Of a stretch of DNA of 21,528 bases, positions 2,924 to 15,822 are shown one piece after another. Position 1 is the first letter of the stretch. Every line of letters starts with the position of its first letter. The stretch lies in IMG/VR virus record IMGVR_UViG_2526164668_000015. One strand, written 5' to 3'. The translations under genes and the position numbers were made by a program. Source of the DNA: a virus. Taxonomy: Duplodnaviria > Heunggongvirae > Uroviricota > Caudoviricetes. Under the pieces are notes generated by a model, which saw nothing but the letters and a program-made list of their open reading frames with translations, ran no database searches and was not told the DNA's origin.

Positions 2924-3056
2924 TTTTTTGGACTCCTGGCTGATTAAGTATGTCGATAAGGCGTTTCCATCCGTCACGTAATTTACGGGTGATTCGTTCA
3001 AGTAAAGATTCGGAAGGGCAGCCAGCAACAGGCCACCCTGCAATGGCATATTGCAT
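2892..3056 (-). CDS. cIII: CIII, FtsH protease inhibitor that stabilises CII
   Basis: 54-aa translation [54 protein letters not shown] from ATG at 3056. This is below the 60-aa ORF-track cutoff and was found by hand. Confidence 0.9.
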   Translation of the reverse strand: MQYAIAGWPVAGCPSESLLERITRKLRDGWKRLIDILNQPGVQKNGSNNYGYPD

Positions 3057-3128
3057 GGTGTGCTCCTTATTTATACATAACGAAAAACGCCTCGAGTGAA
3101 GCGTAATTGGTATGCGGTAACGCCGCGC

Positions 3129-10305: not shown

Positions 10306-10909
10306 ACCAGCGCGAAGACGATGTAAAAACGATGAATGTCGGGAATGGTTTCACCCTGCATTCGCTAATCAGTGGTGGTGCTCTCCAGAGTGTGGAACCA
10401 AGATAGCACTCGAACGACGAAGTAAAGAACGCGAAAAAGCGGAAAAAGCAGCAGAGAAGAAACGACGACGAGAGGAGCAGAAACAGAAAGATAAACTTAA
10501 GATTCGAAAACTCGCCTTAAAGCCCCGCAGTTACTGGATTAAACAAGCCCAACAAGCCGTAAACGCCTTCATCAGAGAAAGAGACCGCGACTTACCATGT
10601 ATCTCGTGCGGAACGCTCACGTCTGCTCAGTGGGATGCCGGACATTACCGGACAACTGCTGCGGCACCTCAACTCCGATTTGATGAACGCAATATTCACA
10701 AGCAATGCGTGGTGTGCAACCAGCACAAAAGCGGAAATCTCGTTCCGTATCGCGTCGAACTGATTAGCCGCATCGGGCAGGAAGCAGTAGACGAAATCGA
10801 ATCAAACCATAACCGCCATCGCTGGACTGTCGAAGAGTGCAAGGCGATCAAGGCAGAGTACCAACAGAAACTCAAAGACCTGCGAAACAGCAGAAGTGAG
10901 GCTGCATGA
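10295..10909 (+). CDS. ninG: NinG (Rap) recombination-associated endonuclease
   Basis: 204-aa [54 protein letters not shown]... matches lambda NinG. Confidence 0.9.
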
Positions 10910-11571
10910 ATATCTACGAAAGAATTGATGGCAGCAAATACCGAAATATTTGGGTAGCTGGCGACCTGCACGGATGCTACACGAACCTGATGAACAAACT
11001 GGATACGATTGGATTCGACACCAAAAAAGACCTGCTCATCTCGGTTGGCGATTTGGTTGATCGCGGTACAGAGAACGTCGAATGTCTGGAATTAATCACA
11101 TTCCCCTGGTTCAGAGCTGTGCGTGGAAACCATGAGCAAATGATGATTGATGGCTTATCAGAGCGTGGAAACGTTAATCACTGGCTGCTTAATGGCGGTG
11201 GCTGGTTCTTTAATCTCGATTACGACAAAGAGACTCTGGCTAAAGTTCTTGCCCATAAAGCAGAAGAACTTCCGTTAATCATCGAACTGGTGAGCAAAGA
11301 TAAAAAATATGTCATTTGCCACGCCGATTATCCTTGTGATAAATACGAGTTTGGAAAGCCAGTTGATCATCAGCAGGTAATCTGGAACCGCGAACGAATC
11401 AGCAACTCACAAGACGGGATCGTGAAAGAAATCAAAGGCGCGGACACGTTCATCTTTGGTCATACGCCAGCAGTGAAACCACTCAAATTTGCCAACCAGA
11501 TGTATATCGATACTGGCGCAGTGTTCTGCGGAAACCTCACATTGATTCAGGTACAGGGAGAAGGCGCATGA
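10906..11571 (+). CDS. ninI: NinI Ser/Thr protein phosphatase (lambda PPase)
   Basis: 221-aa ORF with calcineurin-like metallophosphatase motifs GDLHG, GDLVDRG and GNHE. It matches lambda NinI and follows ninG directly with no ninH. Confidence 0.9.
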
Positions 11572-11657
11572 GACTCGAAAGCGTAGCTAAATTTCATTCG
11601 CCAAAAAGCCCGATGATGAGCGACTCACTACTGGCCACAGTTTATTGGTTTTCGTAA
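11568..11657 (+). pseudogene. Q: truncated remnant of lambda Q antiterminator (29 codons)
   Basis: ATG overlapping the ninI stop encodes [20 protein letters not shown], identical to the lambda Q N-terminus as recalled. It then diverges (LLATVYWFS) and stops at 11655-11657. Confidence 0.7.
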
Positions 11658-11700
11658 CTGAGTCATTTTATTATTTTATTGCAACTTTTAATCTTTTATA

Positions 11701-11747
11701 GTGCGAAATAAATGGAGCTGGCATTCATTTCGCACTTTATGTTTTTG
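11701..11747. terminator. hairpin plus T-tract between convergent genes (candidate bidirectional terminator)
   Basis: GTGCGAAAT (11701-11709) pairs with ATTTCGCAC (11727-11735) as a 9-bp stem around a 17-nt loop, followed by TTTATGTTTTTG. It lies between the Q remnant (+) and the convergent outer-membrane gene (-). Confidence 0.45.
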
Positions 11748-11782
11748 TTGGACTTATGTTATTTTGATTGAATTCAATTCAG

Positions 11783-12742
11783 TTAAAAAAAGAAGGTGAT
11801 TGCTCCATTTATAAATGAATAGTCATCCCCTGTCTTGAATTCTGATGTTACTTTATTAAATGCTAGTGTGAAGGCTACAGGTGCATACCCAATTGTTGCG
11901 CCAACTTGATATTCATCAACAGTTTTGTTTAGCGATACTGTTGTTTGTTTCGTCTGTATTGTTTTTCCTTCGAGAGTATAGTTGCGATTGACATCTCGTC
12001 TTTCCATACCTGCAAAAATCTTGTATTTGAATCCGCTTGTATCGGACATATGCATTAAACCACGGGGAGCCAGCAGACCAAAGCCATTATCCGAATTGAA
12101 GGTTTTATCATTACCAATGGCAATGGTTGCGCCATATGCTACATATTGAAATAAGTTTCCAGTAACAGCAGAAACTTCAGGGTATAATCCAACATTAGCA
12201 CCTAAAATATCCATACTTGGTGTCATGGATAGCATCCCTTTTACAGTATAACCGTAGCGATTCTCTATTTGATCATCCCATGCATGATATTTTTCTGCCC
12301 CAATAATCTCATGAGCTTTATTTTGTACTTTCTGACCGCCTGCGTCGGGGCCAACAACACCTATGTCAGTACCTAATCGATAGCGAATCCAGTCATTCGC
12401 AAGGGAGTTCCATTCAATACCAGTGTGAGTGTATGCACTAAAAGCTCTGTCTCCAGTTACAGCTGTGTTGTGTCTTTTATTACTGCCTGATGGAGAGTAA
12501 ATATCTTGCGCAATATGGAGAGATAATTGGCTCGAGTCTGAGATATCGTGGCTATATCCCAGAAATAAGCCTTGTGAGTAATCATCTCTGTTTTCATGTT
12601 TATTGCCATAAATATCATTAAGTATTGGTTGAAACTTCCCTGCATCATCATTTGCTAATGATAATGCAAGGCTGTTCGCGATAGCTGAACACGTGGTAAA
12701 TGACAGAGCAATAAAGACGCCAGCGATGACACTTTTTTTCAT
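11783..12742 (-). CDS. outer-membrane beta-barrel protein; size and architecture compatible with an LpxR-type lipid A 3'-O-deacylase (unverified)
   Basis: 319-aa ORF with signal peptide MKKSVIAGVFIALSFTTCSAIA and C-terminal aromatic beta-signal ...INGAITFFF. It is AT-rich with a long AT-rich upstream region (12743-13130). The LpxR assignment rests only on length, OMP architecture and a recalled prophage-encoded LpxR in pathogenic E. coli. Confidence 0.8.
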   Translation of the reverse strand: MKKSVIAGVFIALSFTTCSAIANSLALSLANDDAGKFQPILNDIYGNKHENRDDYSQGLFLGYSHDISDSSQLSLHIAQDIYSPSGSNKRHNTAVTGDRAFSAYTHTGIEWNSLANDWIRYRLGTDIGVVGPDAGGQKVQNKAHEIIGAEKYHAWDDQIENRYGYTVKGMLSMTPSMDILGANVGLYPEVSAVTGNLFQYVAYGATIAIGNDKTFNSDNGFGLLAPRGLMHMSDTSGFKYKIFAGMERRDVNRNYTLEGKTIQTKQTTVSLNKTVDEYQVGATIGYAPVAFTLAFNKVTSEFKTGDDYSFINGAITFFF

Positions 12743-13216
12743 ATGTTATTGTCTTCCTTTTTTTTGAATGGTGCGCGTATTTTACATACATGAGTTTGTA
12801 ATACAAGGTGCGTAATCAATATGATGTTTTATAATTGCGTGAGACAATTGATTTATTCGTTTTTTATTGCGGTTTTTATTATCTTTTAATGTAACGGTGT
12901 TTTTATTAAGTGTGTTTGCGTGGTGTTTTATGTTTTTTATAATTTTTATTTTATTAAATTTAAATGCATTAGTAATGGCTATTCTATATAGCAATATAAG
13001 AACTGTTACAAAAAAAGGGGGGCAATTACAGGTAGTTATGGATGATGAGTGAAACAGATATTGGAGAACCGGGGAATGAATGATGTCTGAGTCTTATATA
13101 TCAGAACTCCTTCGCTGTCGCTGGGGGCTCCTGTGCTTATGTCGTTTCCCCGATTCGGTTTTGAACGATTACCGAATGTTGAAGAATTATGCCAAAATAT
13201 AGAAAGGATTTACTGC

Positions 13217-13906
13217 ATGAATACCCAATATTTACAGTATGTTCGTGAGCAACTTATGGCAGCTACTGCTGACTTGAACGGAGCAACGAAAGGCCAGCTC
13301 GAAGCCTGGCAGGAGCATGCACAATTTGATACTGGTACATACAAACGAAAGAAGCTGCGCATTCTGGATGTGGTAACTGGCAAGATGATTACGCTGGATA
13401 ATACGCCGACTTCCGGTAAGCAGTCGTACGCAAAAGGTTCATCCATTGCTTTGGTCAGCCCGGTTGAATTCTCAACCTCTTCATGGCGCCGCGCGGTTTT
13501 GTCTCTCGATGAACATCAGAAAGCATGGTTGCTTTGGTGTTACAGCGAAAGCGTTCGATGGGGGCATCAGGTCACCATAACGCAATGGGCATGGAGCGAG
13601 TTTAAAGATTTGTTAAGTAACAGAAAAATTGCAGGTAAGACACTGGATCGCCTGAAGACGTTAATCTGGCTGGCTGCACAGGATGTGAAGAGCGAACTTG
13701 CAGGGCGTGAGGCCTATGAATACCAGACACTGGCATCATTGGTGGGAGTGACAACAAAAAACTGGTCCGAGACATTTACTGAACGCTGGGTTGCAATGAA
13801 GCACATTTTTCTACAGCTTGATAGTGATGCTTTATTGCTTGTGACGAGAACACGTTCAAAACAAAAGGCAGCATTTTTACAGCAAAATATTGCAAAACTG
13901 GATTAA
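13217..13906 (+). CDS. putative late-gene antiterminator (Q-like, non-lambda family), 229 aa; alternative start at 13133
   Basis: ORF with an AAAGGA Shine-Dalgarno before ATG 13217. It sits where Q is expected, after the nin genes and the Q remnant, and is immediately followed by a sigma70 promoter plus short-transcript terminator. There is no recognisable similarity to lambda Q, so the assignment is by position and context only. Confidence 0.5.
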   Translation: MNTQYLQYVREQLMAATADLNGATKGQLEAWQEHAQFDTGTYKRKKLRILDVVTGKMITLDNTPTSGKQSYAKGSSIALVSPVEFSTSSWRRAVLSLDEHQKAWLLWCYSESVRWGHQVTITQWAWSEFKDLLSNRKIAGKTLDRLKTLIWLAAQDVKSELAGREAYEYQTLASLVGVTTKNWSETFTERWVAMKHIFLQLDSDALLLVTRTRSKQKAAFLQQNIAKLD

Positions 13907-13918
13907 AAGCCATATACT
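13890..13918 (+). promoter_or_regulatory. candidate late promoter (pR'-like): TTGCAA-N17-TATACT
   Basis: -35 TTGCAA (13890-13895), 17-nt spacer, -10 TATACT (13913-13918), directly downstream of the Q-like ORF stop. Confidence 0.5.
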
Positions 13919-13951
13919 TCATGCAAATTTGGTATGTTGTAAAAAATGTAT

Positions 13952-13978
13952 AAACCCGCTGCCGAGTGGGTTTTTTTT
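13952..13978 (+). terminator. intrinsic terminator (tR'-like) about 30-50 nt downstream of the candidate late promoter
   Basis: AAACCCGC-tgccga-GTGGGTTT followed by TTTTTTTT: an 8-bp stem (one G-U pair), 6-nt loop and T8 tract. Confidence 0.65.
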
Positions 13979-14247
13979 ATGCCCTGAGTTGTACTTGTAC
14001 GGTAAACATGCTGGCTGCTATGTAATAGAGTTTTTTTAGCCTGTAACCTCTTGACGGCATTGAATTGCTTTTGTTATGAGTTGTAAGCCAATGTTATCAT
14101 CTTGTATTGGGGTGGTTATGAAGGATGGTGCGCTGCTCAGGAGTTCTTCACTTTTTATTGCCTACATGGGATGCCTTGGATGGGGGAGTGCTTATTTCTA
14201 TGGATGGGGTACTTCTTTTTACTACGGCTTCCCATGGTGGATTGTAG

Positions 14248-14595
14248 GTGCAGGTGTTGATGATGTTGCCAGAAGTTTATTTTTTTGCAGTTATCGTCAT
14301 TGCTATATTTCTTATCGGTTGGGGTATTGGTGTTGTATTCTTTTTCGCAGTGAAAAGAAAACATTCTATGCAAGAGCTAAATGTATTTCGCCTTTATTTT
14401 GCTGTGGAATTATTGTTTGTGCCGGCAATTATTGAGTTTTCTATATTGAGACAGAAGATTCAGGTACCTCTTTTGCTACTGTCAGCAGCGATTGCGCTGG
14501 CGGTTACAATTTCGATAAGATCTTATGGGCGATTTTTATCGGTATCATGCTTCTATGATAAGCCATTTATAAAAAACATTTTTTTGAGATTGTGA
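14248..14595 (+). CDS. small integral membrane protein (about 3 TM helices), AT-rich cargo gene
   Basis: Translation ...LPEVYFFAVIVIAIFLIGWGIGVVFFFAVKRKHSMQELNVFRLYFAVELLFVPAIIEFSILRQKIQVPLLLLSAAIALAVTISI... has three hydrophobic segments. The start is ambiguous (GTG 14248, ATG 14260 or 14263). An overlapping upstream ORF (14076-14435) may be its frameshifted N-terminus. Confidence 0.5.
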   Translation: MQVLMMLPEVYFFAVIVIAIFLIGWGIGVVFFFAVKRKHSMQELNVFRLYFAVELLFVPAIIEFSILRQKIQVPLLLLSAAIALAVTISIRSYGRFLSVSCFYDKPFIKNIFLRL

Positions 14596-14834
14596 TGATT
14601 GCTTTTGTGGCATATTTTTGGCTTTTTTCATTTCTGACAGGATATTACAAACCACAGTTTAAGAAAGAATATGAAATGATTAATTATAATGATGGTTGGT
14701 ATTATGTTCTTGCTCGTTATGATAATTGTCTGGTTTTGTCTACTTCTTTCAATGCAGGTAGTAAAAGGTTTGTCATTTATCAATCAGCACAAGATAAGAA
14801 TCTTCAGGTTGATATTGTAAGGACCAGAATTTAA
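14592..14834 (+). CDS. small protein with N-terminal TM helix, coupled to the preceding membrane protein
   Basis: MMIAFVAYFWLFSFLTGYYKPQFKKEYEMINYNDGWYYVLARYDNCLVLSTSFNAGSKRFVIYQSAQDKNLQVDIVRTRI. The ATG overlaps the upstream TGA stop (ATGA). Confidence 0.5.
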   Translation: MMIAFVAYFWLFSFLTGYYKPQFKKEYEMINYNDGWYYVLARYDNCLVLSTSFNAGSKRFVIYQSAQDKNLQVDIVRTRI

Positions 14835-15124
14835 TTGGCTGCATAAATAATATTTTAAGTTGCAAGTTGGCTATTCGTAGGAATAGAACCTTAGGCATGC
14901 TGAATGCGTTTTCTGAACATTGTTTTATAAACTGTGTCTGCTTGCTGTTGTGATCCTGCTTTTAGTGATGGTGATGATGGATTTCACCAGCAGGATAATG
15001 TTGGTACTGACTGATGGCGCTCTGGTCTGCGGCATTGTGGTATTGCTGTGGCCGATGATGAAAGAACAGGTGATGCTGCCAACTTACTGATTTAGTGTAT
15101 GATGGTGTTTTTTGAGGTGCTCCA

Positions 15125-15400
15125 GTGGCTTCTGTTTCTATCAGCTGTCCCTCCTGTTCAGCTACTGACGGGGTGGTGCGTAACGGCAAAAGCACCGCCG
15201 GACATCAGCGCTATCTCTGCTCTCACTGCCGTAAAACATGGCAACTGCAGTTCACTTACACCGCTTCTCAACCCGGTACGCACCAGAAAATCATTGATAT
15301 GGCCATGAATGGCGTTGGATGCCGGGCAACTGCCCGCATTATGGGCGTTGGCCTCAACACGATTTTACGTCACTTAAAAAACTCAGGCCGCAGTCGGTAA
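15125..15400 (+). CDS. insA: IS1 InsA
   Basis: 91-aa translation [91 protein letters not shown]. Confidence 0.95.
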
Positions 15401-15822
15401 CCTCGCGCATACAGCCGGGCAGTGACGTCATCGTCTGCGCGGAAATGGACGAACAGTGGGGCTATGTCGGGGCTAAATCGCGCCAGCGCTGGCTGTTTTA
15501 CGCGTATGACAGTCTCCGGAAGACGGTTGTTGCGCACGTATTCGGTGAACGCACTATGGCGACGCTGGGGCGTCTTATGAGCCTGCTGTCACCCTTTGAC
15601 GTGGTGATATGGATGACGGATGGCTGGCCGCTGTATGAATCCCGCCTGAAGGGAAAGCTGCACGTAATCAGCAAGCGATATACGCAGCGAATTGAGCGGC
15701 ATAACCTGAATCTGAGGCAGCACCTGGCACGGCTGGGACGGAAGTCGCTGTCGTTCTCAAAATCGGTGGAGCTGCATGACAAAGTCATCGGGCATTATCT
15801 GAACATAAAACACTATCAATAA
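15319..15822 (+). CDS. insB: IS1 InsB (transposase produced as InsAB' by frameshift)
   Basis: 167-aa ORF ...[72 protein letters not shown] overlapping insA in the -1 frame. Confidence 0.95.

Follow-up and report, generated by a model that had tools for sequence, protein, structure and literature searches.

The question raised by this locus is what became of the late-gene regulator in a lambdoid prophage whose early right operon follows that of lambda through ninI and whose lambda-type Q gene breaks off after its first codons. The initial annotation of the window (the whole stretch of DNA analysed here, 21,528 nucleotides) proposed that the late-regulation module had been replaced and that an envelope-modifying moron had been acquired. 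This reading is supported by our sequence comparisons and agrees with the annotation given to phage 434 by its depositors: the convergent gene proved to encode LpxR, and the Q gene downstream of it belongs to a different family (PF06323) from that of the Q gene from which the stub derives (PF03589). The feature is real and ordinary: it is the junction at the late regulator that phage 434 shares with related prophages, and it had been annotated before now. We consider it about 90% probable that the best overall explanation is the nin-to-Q junction of a phage-434-type lambdoid prophage, a mosaic of a lambda-type operon with its stub, an lpxR moron and an 82-type module. All elements named in the initial annotation were recovered at or near their proposed positions, and its interpretation held; what had to be revised was the start of Q, a ylcG-like ORF that it had overlooked and the exact boundaries of the modules.

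According to this explanation, the first piece would consist of the lambda-type early right operon through ninI, together with the first ~71-76 bases of a lambda-type Q. The second would be a 1.43-kb low-GC moron in which lpxR is encoded on the opposite strand, preceded by an AT-rich upstream region of its own and followed by a hairpin at its 3' end. The third would be a phage-82-type late-control module composed of the ylcG-like ORF, a 229-aa Q82-type antiterminator, the cognate late promoter together with its sigma-70 pause element, and a terminator. Table 1 collects the features.

Table 1. Features of the nin-to-Q junction, with positions counted from the first nucleotide of the window.
Feature	Position	Strand	Description
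ninI	10906-11571	+	Lambda-type Ser/Thr phosphatase; Pfam Metallophos, E 3.4e-16; 96% nucleotide identity with lambda ninI
Q stub	11568-11657	+	29 codons; codons 1-20 as in lambda Q, remainder unrelated, then stop
Foreign segment (moron)	11644-13070		~1.43 kb; left limit, end of lambda homology; right limit, start of phage-82 homology
Hairpin with T-rich tail	11700-11749	+	From RNA folding; terminator-like, facing rightward early transcription
lpxR	11783-12742	-	Lipid A 3'-O-deacylase, outer membrane; 319 aa including a signal peptide of ~22 aa; PF09982
AT-rich upstream region of lpxR	12743-13070	-	28% GC; presumed promoter/regulatory region
ylcG-like mini-ORF	13080-13202	+	40 codons; homologue of phage 82 orf45 and DLP12 ylcG; first gene of the 82-type module
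Q (Q82-type late-gene antiterminator)	13217-13906	+	229 aa; PF06323
Late promoter (pR'-like)	13890-13918	+	From promoter scan; -35 TTGCAA 13890-13895, 17-nt spacer, -10 TATACT 13913-13918
Extended -10-like element TGgTATGTT	13930-13938	+	In the early transcribed region; candidate sigma-70 pause inducer
Intrinsic terminator (tR'-like)	13952-13981	+	From terminator scan; 9-bp stem with 4 GC pairs, then T8

Escherichia phage 434 (GenBank OL657226; Feiss et al. 2022, Microbiol Resour Announc, PMC9119081) shares 99.7% nucleotide identity with the window over 10900-14100, and its genes CPT_434_63 to CPT_434_67 show the same order, i.e., ninI, an N-terminal fragment of Q, LpxR on the opposite strand, a YlcG-like gene and a Q82-like gene, followed by a terminator. 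The labels used there include 'outer membrane beta-barrel lipid A deacylase LpxR' and a 'Q82-like' antiterminator. A search for papers linking 'phage 434' with 'LpxR' returned none, and the link is made in the GenBank annotation only. The window retains cI, cro, O and P, like 434. It differs from 434 by an 8-bp duplication (ATTTTATT twice, 11665-11680), which is absent in 434 and present in O157:H7, and, further downstream, by an IS1 element at ~15070 and a first late gene whose frame is shifted at two homopolymers. Since the prophage in the window is cut by this IS1, its late module may no longer matter biologically.

The limits of the lpxR-bearing foreign segment were set as in Table 1 because the homology to phage 82 begins at 13071. 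The GC content of the insert (28-39%) departs from the 47% of the phage backbone, and its placement is that of a moron: lambda has ninI next to Q, phage 82 has rus, orf45 and Q as neighbours, and the insert of deviant GC lies between. Among 50,697 phage records, only 434 and 434B carry the segment. In E. coli, 620 genomes have it at an identity of at least 99%, and the arrangement occurs in ~620 of 5,426 complete E. coli genomes, O157:H7 included.

The right end of the window is plasmid-like. A plasmid-borne locus was considered on that account and rejected, as none of the PLSDB plasmids has the stub-lpxR-Q arrangement.

The arrangement may have originated in one replacement or in two steps. 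A history of two or more steps, in which a swap between lambda-like and 82-like Q modules came first and lpxR was inserted at the joint later, seems to us rather unlikely, if conceivable. The two junctions lie in unrelated sequences, the left one at codon 21-25 of Q and the right one at the 3' end of rus, and lpxR exists independently of phages: an allele 81% identical is present on E. coli plasmids, where the match comprises the coding sequence and 46 bp only, and a scan of genome contigs for LpxR relatives gave a single locus, in Citrobacter, with 73% identity and a chromosomal position beside phoPQ. The flanks of the Citrobacter locus showed no homology to the window, and the donor of the moron was not traced. 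Against a stepwise history, no intermediate was found, and all 618-620 E. coli copies as well as phage 434 have both junctions at an identity of at least 99%.

On its right-hand side, the window becomes homologous to the rus-orf45-Q region of phage 82 (X92588) within the last codons of rus, and the homology continues through orf45 into Q; on the upstream side, phage 82 has rus, whereas the window has lpxR and the lambda nin region. The mini-ORF at the start of the 82-type module lies between lpxR and Q and was missing from the initial annotation. It is annotated as YlcG family by PGAP and as 'YlcG-like protein' in phage 434, and it matched no Pfam family.

The ORF in the Q position had been described as encoding 229-257 aa and as Q-like. 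Its product matches PF06323 with an E-value of 1.1e-91 and 306.9 bits (cut-off 25), and 202 of its 229 residues (88%) are identical to phage 82 Q in an alignment free of gaps. Pfam assigns lambda Q to PF03589, phage 82 Q and the Q of the window to PF06323, and DLP12 QuuD to PF06530. A PDB sequence search with Q found no relative, giving only a chance match to ClbS (E 0.42). The family is settled by the identity to Q82, and on these comparisons the 229-aa ORF is a Q82-type antiterminator; the HMM check proposed with the initial annotation thus came out in its favour. The part of the earlier description that did not stand is the longer product. Although the frame is open from GTG 13133, it is very unlikely that the true Q is the 257-aa form initiated there, as the match to the Pfam profile begins only at residue 32 of the 257-aa reading, equivalent to residue 4 of the shorter one, the start of phage 82 Q corresponds to 13217, with all 229 aa of each protein aligned over the whole length, and the extension would overlap the ylcG-like ORF in a different frame. 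In addition, a GAAAGGA motif sits upstream of ATG 13217, and both PGAP and the depositors of 434 chose the downstream start. We therefore take ATG 13217 as the real start.

A promoter-terminator pair after Q had been noted from the sequence, and both parts were recovered by the scans (Table 1). The -35 hexamer overlaps the end of Q, and transcription would start near 13925. The -35, the -10 and the downstream TGnTAT are conserved in four Q82-type phages, and the sequence past 13939 diverges. In phage 82, a sigma-70-dependent pause occurs at +25 of PR' (PMC3326312), and Q-dependent readthrough of terminators by phage 82 Q is known (PMC3326312, PMC4914094). The terminator lies ~30-57 nt after the probable start and is annotated as a terminator in phage 434. 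Each of the Q82-type relatives has its own hairpin-plus-T terminator at a similar distance. The terminator of the window would be the substrate of antitermination by Q. From 13940 onward, the terminator included, the sequence of the window is not of the 82 type and is common to phage 2B8. The new Q appears to have brought exactly its own promoter and pause element, and nothing further. The depositors of 434 also marked a CII-site motif, TTGYN6TTGY, at the end of Q (13882-13895, - strand); we gave it no weight, as the window contains six such motifs as compared with 5.95 expected, which is the chance level.

At the left-hand junction, ninI is the last intact gene of the lambda-like nin region, and it is labelled as a phosphatase in phage 434 and in RefSeq prophages. 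The window is 100% identical to lambda (NC_001416) from at least 11540 to 11628, which covers Q codons 1-20; three mismatches follow up to 11639, and homology is gone after ~11643 in the alignment, the BLAST match ending at 11638. The start of the stub overlaps the stop of ninI (ATGA), and the ribosome-binding site of lambda is intact in the alignment. Beyond codon 20, the similarity to lambda Q is partial and extends to codon 25 at most, and the last nine codons are unrelated. The alignment thus shows exactly what had been proposed from the sequence, namely 20 intact lambda Q codons coupled to ninI, then decay and a stop after 29 codons. The stub lacks the PF03589 Antiterm domain, which spans residues 113-199 in lambda Q. 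By these alignments it is a remnant rather than a member of that family, and it is called partial by PGAP and 'antiterminator Protein Q, N-terminal fragment' in phage 434.

The stub would be a non-functional recombination scar. We give slightly less credence than to the 257-aa Q to a function of the 29-aa peptide or of its translation, for instance in ribosome coupling from ninI or as a small protein. The intact ribosome-binding site, the overlap with ninI and the presence of the stub in all copies would fit such a role; on the other side, the antiterminator domain is wholly absent, and the unrelated codons simply run to the first stop. Moreover, the copies are at least 99% identical across the entire 3 kb, so retention of the stub reflects recent common descent and not selection.

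The convergent gene had been described as an outer-membrane beta-barrel gene, 'possibly LpxR-like'. Its product matches PF09982 with an E-value of 6.8e-40 and 137.4 bits (cut-off 26), residues 10-318 aligning with profile positions 2-320 of 323, and no Pfam family besides LpxR, including those of PagL, porins and adhesins, matches the protein at an E-value of up to 0.01. For LpxR, Q and NinG, no model was returned from NCBIfam. Residues 24-319 align with positions 2-296 of the chain of PDB 3FID (E 3.6e-153; 74% identity, one 1-residue gap), and a hydrophobic stretch of 22 residues at the N-terminus, closing with AIA, can be read from the sequence as a signal peptide. The catalytic residues N9, D10, S34, Q118 and H122 of the mature protein (N31, D32, S56, Q140 and H144 of the precursor) are all present; in Yersinia LpxR, deacylation is lost when these residues are replaced by alanine (PMC3486919). 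The gene is 100% identical at the nucleotide level with the locus encoding WP_000750155.1, an accession annotated in O157:H7 SS52. By these comparisons, the 319-aa protein is a full-length LpxR, a lipid A 3'-O-deacylase.

The lpxR gene of enterohaemorrhagic E. coli O157:H7 is reportedly the subject of Ogawa et al. 2018 (Cell Microbiol 20:e12806). In articles that cite Ogawa 2018, EHEC lpxR is credited with 3'-O-deacylase activity (PMC6393859, PMC7649339) and is described as controlled (activated) by Ler and Pch (PMC6393859, PMC9263587). That the protein might be another outer-membrane protein (a porin, an adhesin or a PagL-type deacylase) or an inactive relic of LpxR, for which we found no support beyond its beta-barrel nature, is hardly credible, given the sole Pfam match, the full-length alignment with 3FID, the five conserved residues whose loss abolishes activity and an accession shared with O157:H7, whose lpxR is reported to be active in the articles cited above. 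As shown for close homologues, the LpxR of the window would insert in the outer membrane and remove the 3'-acyloxyacyl group of lipid A, a loss that would lower innate immune recognition, and in EHEC the gene is reported to be switched on by Ler and Pch alongside the LEE virulence genes.

The initial annotation listed a hairpin terminator after the stub. On the + strand, 11700-11736 pairs in a 14-bp stem, interrupted by a single internal mismatch, ahead of TTATGTTTTTGTT, and folds at -16.4 kcal/mol (z = -3.0). Read on the - strand, where it lies at the lpxR 3' end, the hairpin folds at -19.1 kcal/mol (z = -5.1), with a perfect 15-pair stem and no U tract. The strict terminator scan did not flag this hairpin because of the mismatch in the stem, and the hairpin was assessed by folding energies rather than by that scan. 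It is identical in phage 434 and O157:H7, and from its fold and tail it looks like an intrinsic terminator on the + strand.

The long AT-rich region upstream of lpxR was also as described, and it presumably holds the lpxR promoter. It contains a single weak match to the promoter consensus, on the - strand at 13009-12981, which is at the level of chance; in the region scanned, seven consensus matches were found as compared with 8.1 expected. When the whole window was compared with Rfam, with E-values of up to 1 admitted, no RNA family was found within 11500-14100; elsewhere, the scan returned only the lambda cIII thermoregulator (3011-3069) and, weakly, an IS3 frameshift pseudoknot. Neither the terminated pR' transcript nor the intergenic regions thus match a curated small RNA, STnc100 included.

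How Q would be expressed across the insert can be outlined from the order of the signals. During lytic growth, N-modified, termination-resistant transcription from pR would have to cross the stub, the hairpin terminator and lpxR, 1 kb in antisense, on its rightward way to ylcG and Q. An N gene is annotated in a near-identical prophage, and expression of Q would be expected to depend on N-mediated readthrough of the lpxR cassette, although a separate ylcG-Q promoter may lie inside 12743-13079. Q would then load onto RNA polymerase paused just past the late promoter, and the Q-loaded polymerase would pass the terminator at the start of the late transcript into the late genes.

With the early operon on one side and the sole functional Q gene on the other, the convergent lpxR cassette could also have a role beyond that of cargo, gating the lytic programme, an idea that we put forward as speculative and quite unlikely. 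In that case, the + strand terminator, complexes of H-NS or Ler on the AT-rich region and head-on lpxR transcription could delay or throttle Q. If this were true, the timing of late genes in the prophage would be coupled to the virulence regulon of the host, and induction would shut lpxR off through antisense transcription.

Returning to the mosaic reading, the locus carries little weight as a discovery, as its pieces are annotated in the published genome of phage 434 and, for hundreds of E. coli genomes, by RefSeq; the enzyme, too, has been studied in EHEC. Its value is that of a clean textbook example of lambdoid mosaicism, with one breakpoint inside a gene (the Q stub) and one at the end of a gene (rus). 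The virulence-associated lpxR of EHEC and EPEC is the very gene that 434, a classic laboratory phage, carries, so that a lysogen of K-12 with 434 would offer a simple system for studying the regulation of lpxR and any effect on late-gene timing.

The prophage of O157:H7 shares with the window the same LpxR accession and the flanking stub, ylcG and Q. There, lpxR sits in a prophage remnant beside integrase and excisionase genes; in strain SS52 the immunity and replication region is lost, and a partial bet is fused next to ninE, whereas the window keeps that region as in 434.

The LpxR of Salmonella Typhimurium and its structure 3FID are said to go back to Reynolds 2006 and Rutten 2009. The lpxR genes of Salmonella and Yersinia are chromosomal, whereas lpxR here is in a prophage. 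The enzymes of Salmonella Typhimurium (3FID) and Yersinia enterocolitica (PMC3486919) share with the present one the fold family and the active-site residues N9, D10, S/T34, Q118 and H122. The Salmonella enzyme has Gly at position 31, in contrast to the Asp found here and in Yersinia, where D31 blocks action on aminoarabinose-modified lipid A (PMC3486919). A lesser idea, as speculative and unlikely as the gate, is that the Asp31 shared with Yersinia renders the present enzyme inactive on lipid A so modified, in which case its activity would follow PmrA status.

The comparison can be extended to other cargo genes of this phage group. The moron concept is due to Hendrix and colleagues, and lom and bor of lambda are lambdoid examples. 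Like these, the insert is an extra, independently oriented low-GC gene with putative flanking signals of its own, located between genes that are adjacent in relatives, and lpxR would be expected to act in the lysogen. The difference is that the insertion here goes together with an exchange of the essential regulator next to it and has left the stub of a gene behind, and that the insert stands in the path of early transcription towards Q.

The window carries, from position 1 to about 15069, a lambdoid prophage whose gene order (N, a 210-aa repressor, cro, cII, O, P, ren, ninB, methylase, ninE, ninF, ninG and ninI) is that of Escherichia phage 434. A full-length match to the cIII thermoregulator RNA of lambda (Rfam RF01804; 88.5 bits, E 1e-20) was also found at 3011-3069 on the minus strand. 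The initial annotation had proposed that the late-regulation module was replaced and an envelope-modifying moron acquired, and our analysis supported this reading with small corrections. The window is identical to lambda from at least 11540 to 11628, including Q codons 1-20, shows three mismatches up to 11639, and loses similarity after about 11643 (the BLAST match ends at 11638), in agreement with the claim that lambda Q is cut to a stub of 29 codons, the first 20 of them intact and coupled to ninI. Since the PF03589 domain of lambda Q (207 aa) lies at residues 113-199, the stub is a remnant without the functional part of the protein. PGAP labels it a partial antitermination protein in the E. 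coli genomes with this arrangement.

Features of the late-regulation region and of the sequences compared with it
Feature	Position	Strand	Size	Basis or detail
ninI	10906-11571			end in ATGA overlap with 29-codon ORF
Q stub	11568-11657		29 codons	lambda alignment
hairpin	11700-11736	plus		then TTATGTTTTTGTT; RNA fold -16.4 kcal/mol, z = -3.0
lpxR	11783-12742	minus	319 aa	Pfam LpxR, E 6.8e-40
ylcG-like ORF	13080-13202		40 codons	counterpart of phage 82 orf45 and DLP12 ylcG
Q82-type Q	13217 (ATG)-13906		229 aa	PF06323, E 1.1e-91
late promoter	13890-13918			TTGCAA-17-TATACT, overlaps Q end; promoter scan
terminator	13952-13973			hairpin, then T8; terminator scan, RNA fold
IS1	InsA 15125-15400, InsB 15319-15822			directly past prophage end
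IS3-family element, F4/K88-type fimbrial genes	3' of IS1			
plasmid lpxR allele	NZ_AP019857.1 48931-49935; NZ_AP045065.1 48957-49961			

Homology to phage 82 (X92588) starts at 13071, at GGGGAATGAATGATG, which contains the last rus codons and the orf45 start of that phage. Since lambda homology ends on the left and phage 82 homology begins on the right, the foreign piece of about 1.43 kb was placed at 11644-13070. With 28% GC on either side of the coding part and 39% within it, this piece is poorer in GC than the phage sequence to the left (47%). The hairpin proposed as a terminator after the stub is present and followed by TTATGTTTTTGTT; it was absent from the list of the strict terminator scan because of one mismatch in the plus-strand stem. 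Read from the minus strand, the same sequence folds into a perfect stem of 15 pairs (-19.1 kcal/mol, z = -5.1) without a U tract after it. ATTTTATT stands as two tandem copies in the window (11665-11680), likewise in O157:H7 SS52, and as a single copy in phage 434, and this duplication is the sole length difference between the window and phage 434 in the stub-to-lpxR spacer.

The 319-aa outer-membrane gene, previously suspected to be LpxR-like, matched LpxR as its only Pfam family, and its residues 24-319 aligned to the Salmonella LpxR crystal chain (3FID) with 74% identity (E 3.6e-153). Replacement of N9, D10, S34, Q118 or H122 abolishes deacylation (PMC3486919, citing also Rutten 2009); the alignment shows all of these residues kept, along with the docking-cavity residues Q16, K67 and Y130. 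Mature position 31 (precursor 53; window 12584-12586) is Asp here and in Yersinia LpxR, whereas it is Gly in Salmonella. Asp31 hinders the action of the Yersinia enzyme on aminoarabinose-modified lipid A (PMC3486919), and because of this shared residue the E. coli/phage 434 LpxR may, by analogy, be latent when lipid A bears aminoarabinose. The lpxR segment has 100% nucleotide identity to the locus encoding WP_000750155.1, an accession also annotated in O157:H7 SS52. Removal of the 3'-acyloxyacyl group from lipid A has been shown for Salmonella and Yersinia LpxR; papers citing Ogawa 2018 report the same deacylation for EHEC lpxR, including by mass spectrometry, and secondary sources describe this gene as activated by Ler and Pch and co-expressed with LEE genes.

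The ORF in the Q position, given earlier as 229-257 aa, is a Q antiterminator (PF06323), but its 257-aa form was not retained. The gene starts at the ATG at 13217, since the PF06323 alignment sets in only with residue 32 of the 257-aa form, phage 82 Q aligns end to end (229 vs 229 residues, 88% identity, no gaps), GAAAGGA stands before this ATG, and PGAP and the phage 434 depositors both choose it. The elements that the initial annotation listed in 11568-13906 are present, but it missed the ylcG-like ORF, which was overlooked because it lies in another frame inside the 257-aa reading. Pfam splits Q proteins into three kinds, namely lambda Q (PF03589), phage 82 and window Q (PF06323), and DLP12 QuuD (PF06530). 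A sequence search of solved structures, run at E up to 1, found no relative of window Q; ClbS (E 0.42), the sole hit, is a chance match.

The promoter-terminator pair described after Q was recovered. Given an inferred start near 13925, TGgTATGTT, an extended -10-like element, lies at about +6 to +14 and is followed by an A/T-rich run. The sigma-70-dependent pause at phage 82 PR' is at +25 (PMC3326312), a position that in the window would fall in the A/T-rich run, just before the terminator hairpin. An alignment of four phages with the Q82-type (PF06323) antiterminator showed that the -35, -10 and TGnTAT are conserved and that past 13939 the phages diverge, yet all have a hairpin-plus-T terminator of their own at about the same distance. 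A further mosaic joint is seen at 13939-13953, with likeness to these phages stopping just past the pause-like element. Phage 2B8 matches the window from 13953 onward, beginning at the terminator, whereas its antiterminator gene after ninI (579 bp, 192 codons) differs from that of the window. The end of Q82-type conservation at 13939 and the start of the 2B8 match at 13953 show that the exchangeable unit is Q, its promoter and the pause-like element, and nothing more. TTGCAATATTTTGC, at 13882-13895 on the minus strand, fits the CII-site consensus, overlaps the late-promoter -35 and is annotated as paQ in the phage 434 record; such motifs in the window showed no excess over chance (6 found vs 5.95 expected).

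In the lysogen, LpxR would most likely be expressed from the region upstream of its gene and would then take the 3'-acyloxyacyl group off lipid A. By analogy with lambda, N-modified pR transcription would have to cross the stub, the plus-strand hairpin terminator and lpxR in antisense to reach ylcG and Q, which would then work at the late promoter. Alternatively, ylcG and Q are possibly served by a separate promoter. Modulation of late-gene timing by the head-on lpxR cassette between the early operon and Q is unlikely. As for history, the arrangement may have arisen by one replacement or in several steps; no intermediate arrangement was found among the phage records, complete E. coli genomes and plasmids searched.

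The first gene past the late terminator (14091-14834) is a 744-bp putative membrane protein gene in phage 434 and RefSeq prophages. The window has this gene split into three frames, by one T gained within a T run and one A lost from an A run (at about 14280 and about 14571), reflecting either true decay of the gene or sequencing error in homopolymers. Prophage homology ends at 15069, and the rest of the window matches 62-83 kb plasmids of bovine E. coli, such as NZ_CP010120.1, at 100% identity. The prophage-plasmid junction, which occurred in no complete genome or plasmid of the collections searched, reflects either cointegrate formation mediated by IS1 or a chimeric assembly at the IS1 repeat.

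The lpxR gene also exists outside phages. Plasmids of about 100 kb in E. coli carry a second allele, of 81% nucleotide identity, without phage context; homology there is confined to the coding sequence and a further 46 bp. Citrobacter sp. ANG330 has a chromosomal lpxR between purB and phoPQ (L008, 4001-4957; 73% amino-acid identity), whose flanks showed no likeness to the window in a flank comparison. Among 50,697 phage records the lpxR segment was found only in phages 434 and 434B, while 622 of 5,426 complete E. coli genomes contain it (620 at at least 99% identity) and 620 have the arrangement over all of 11300-14300; the matches listed include genomes of serotypes O157:H7, O55:H7, O103, O111, O145 and O127:H6. 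In a 2026 preprint about Pas sRNAs, LpxR and a phage Q protein are given as the conserved neighbours of PasD, an Hfq-binding sRNA placed just upstream of a sialate esterase gene and syntenic with lpxR and Q; the PasD stretch is probably absent from the window, beyond the IS1 break (compare L001, 11860-12101). Phage 434 (OL657226), whose genome was published in 2022 (PMC9119081), is 99.7% identical over 10900-14100, and its record gives lambda Q (N-terminal fragment) for the stub, LpxR, a lipid A deacylase, for the outer-membrane gene, a YlcG-like product for the small ORF and a Q82-like one for Q, and marks the terminator too. In 434B, the Q-to-lysis region has been replaced by DLP12 sequence via a crossover in ylcG (PMC9119081). 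From these records and annotations, the stub-lpxR-Q feature is already known.
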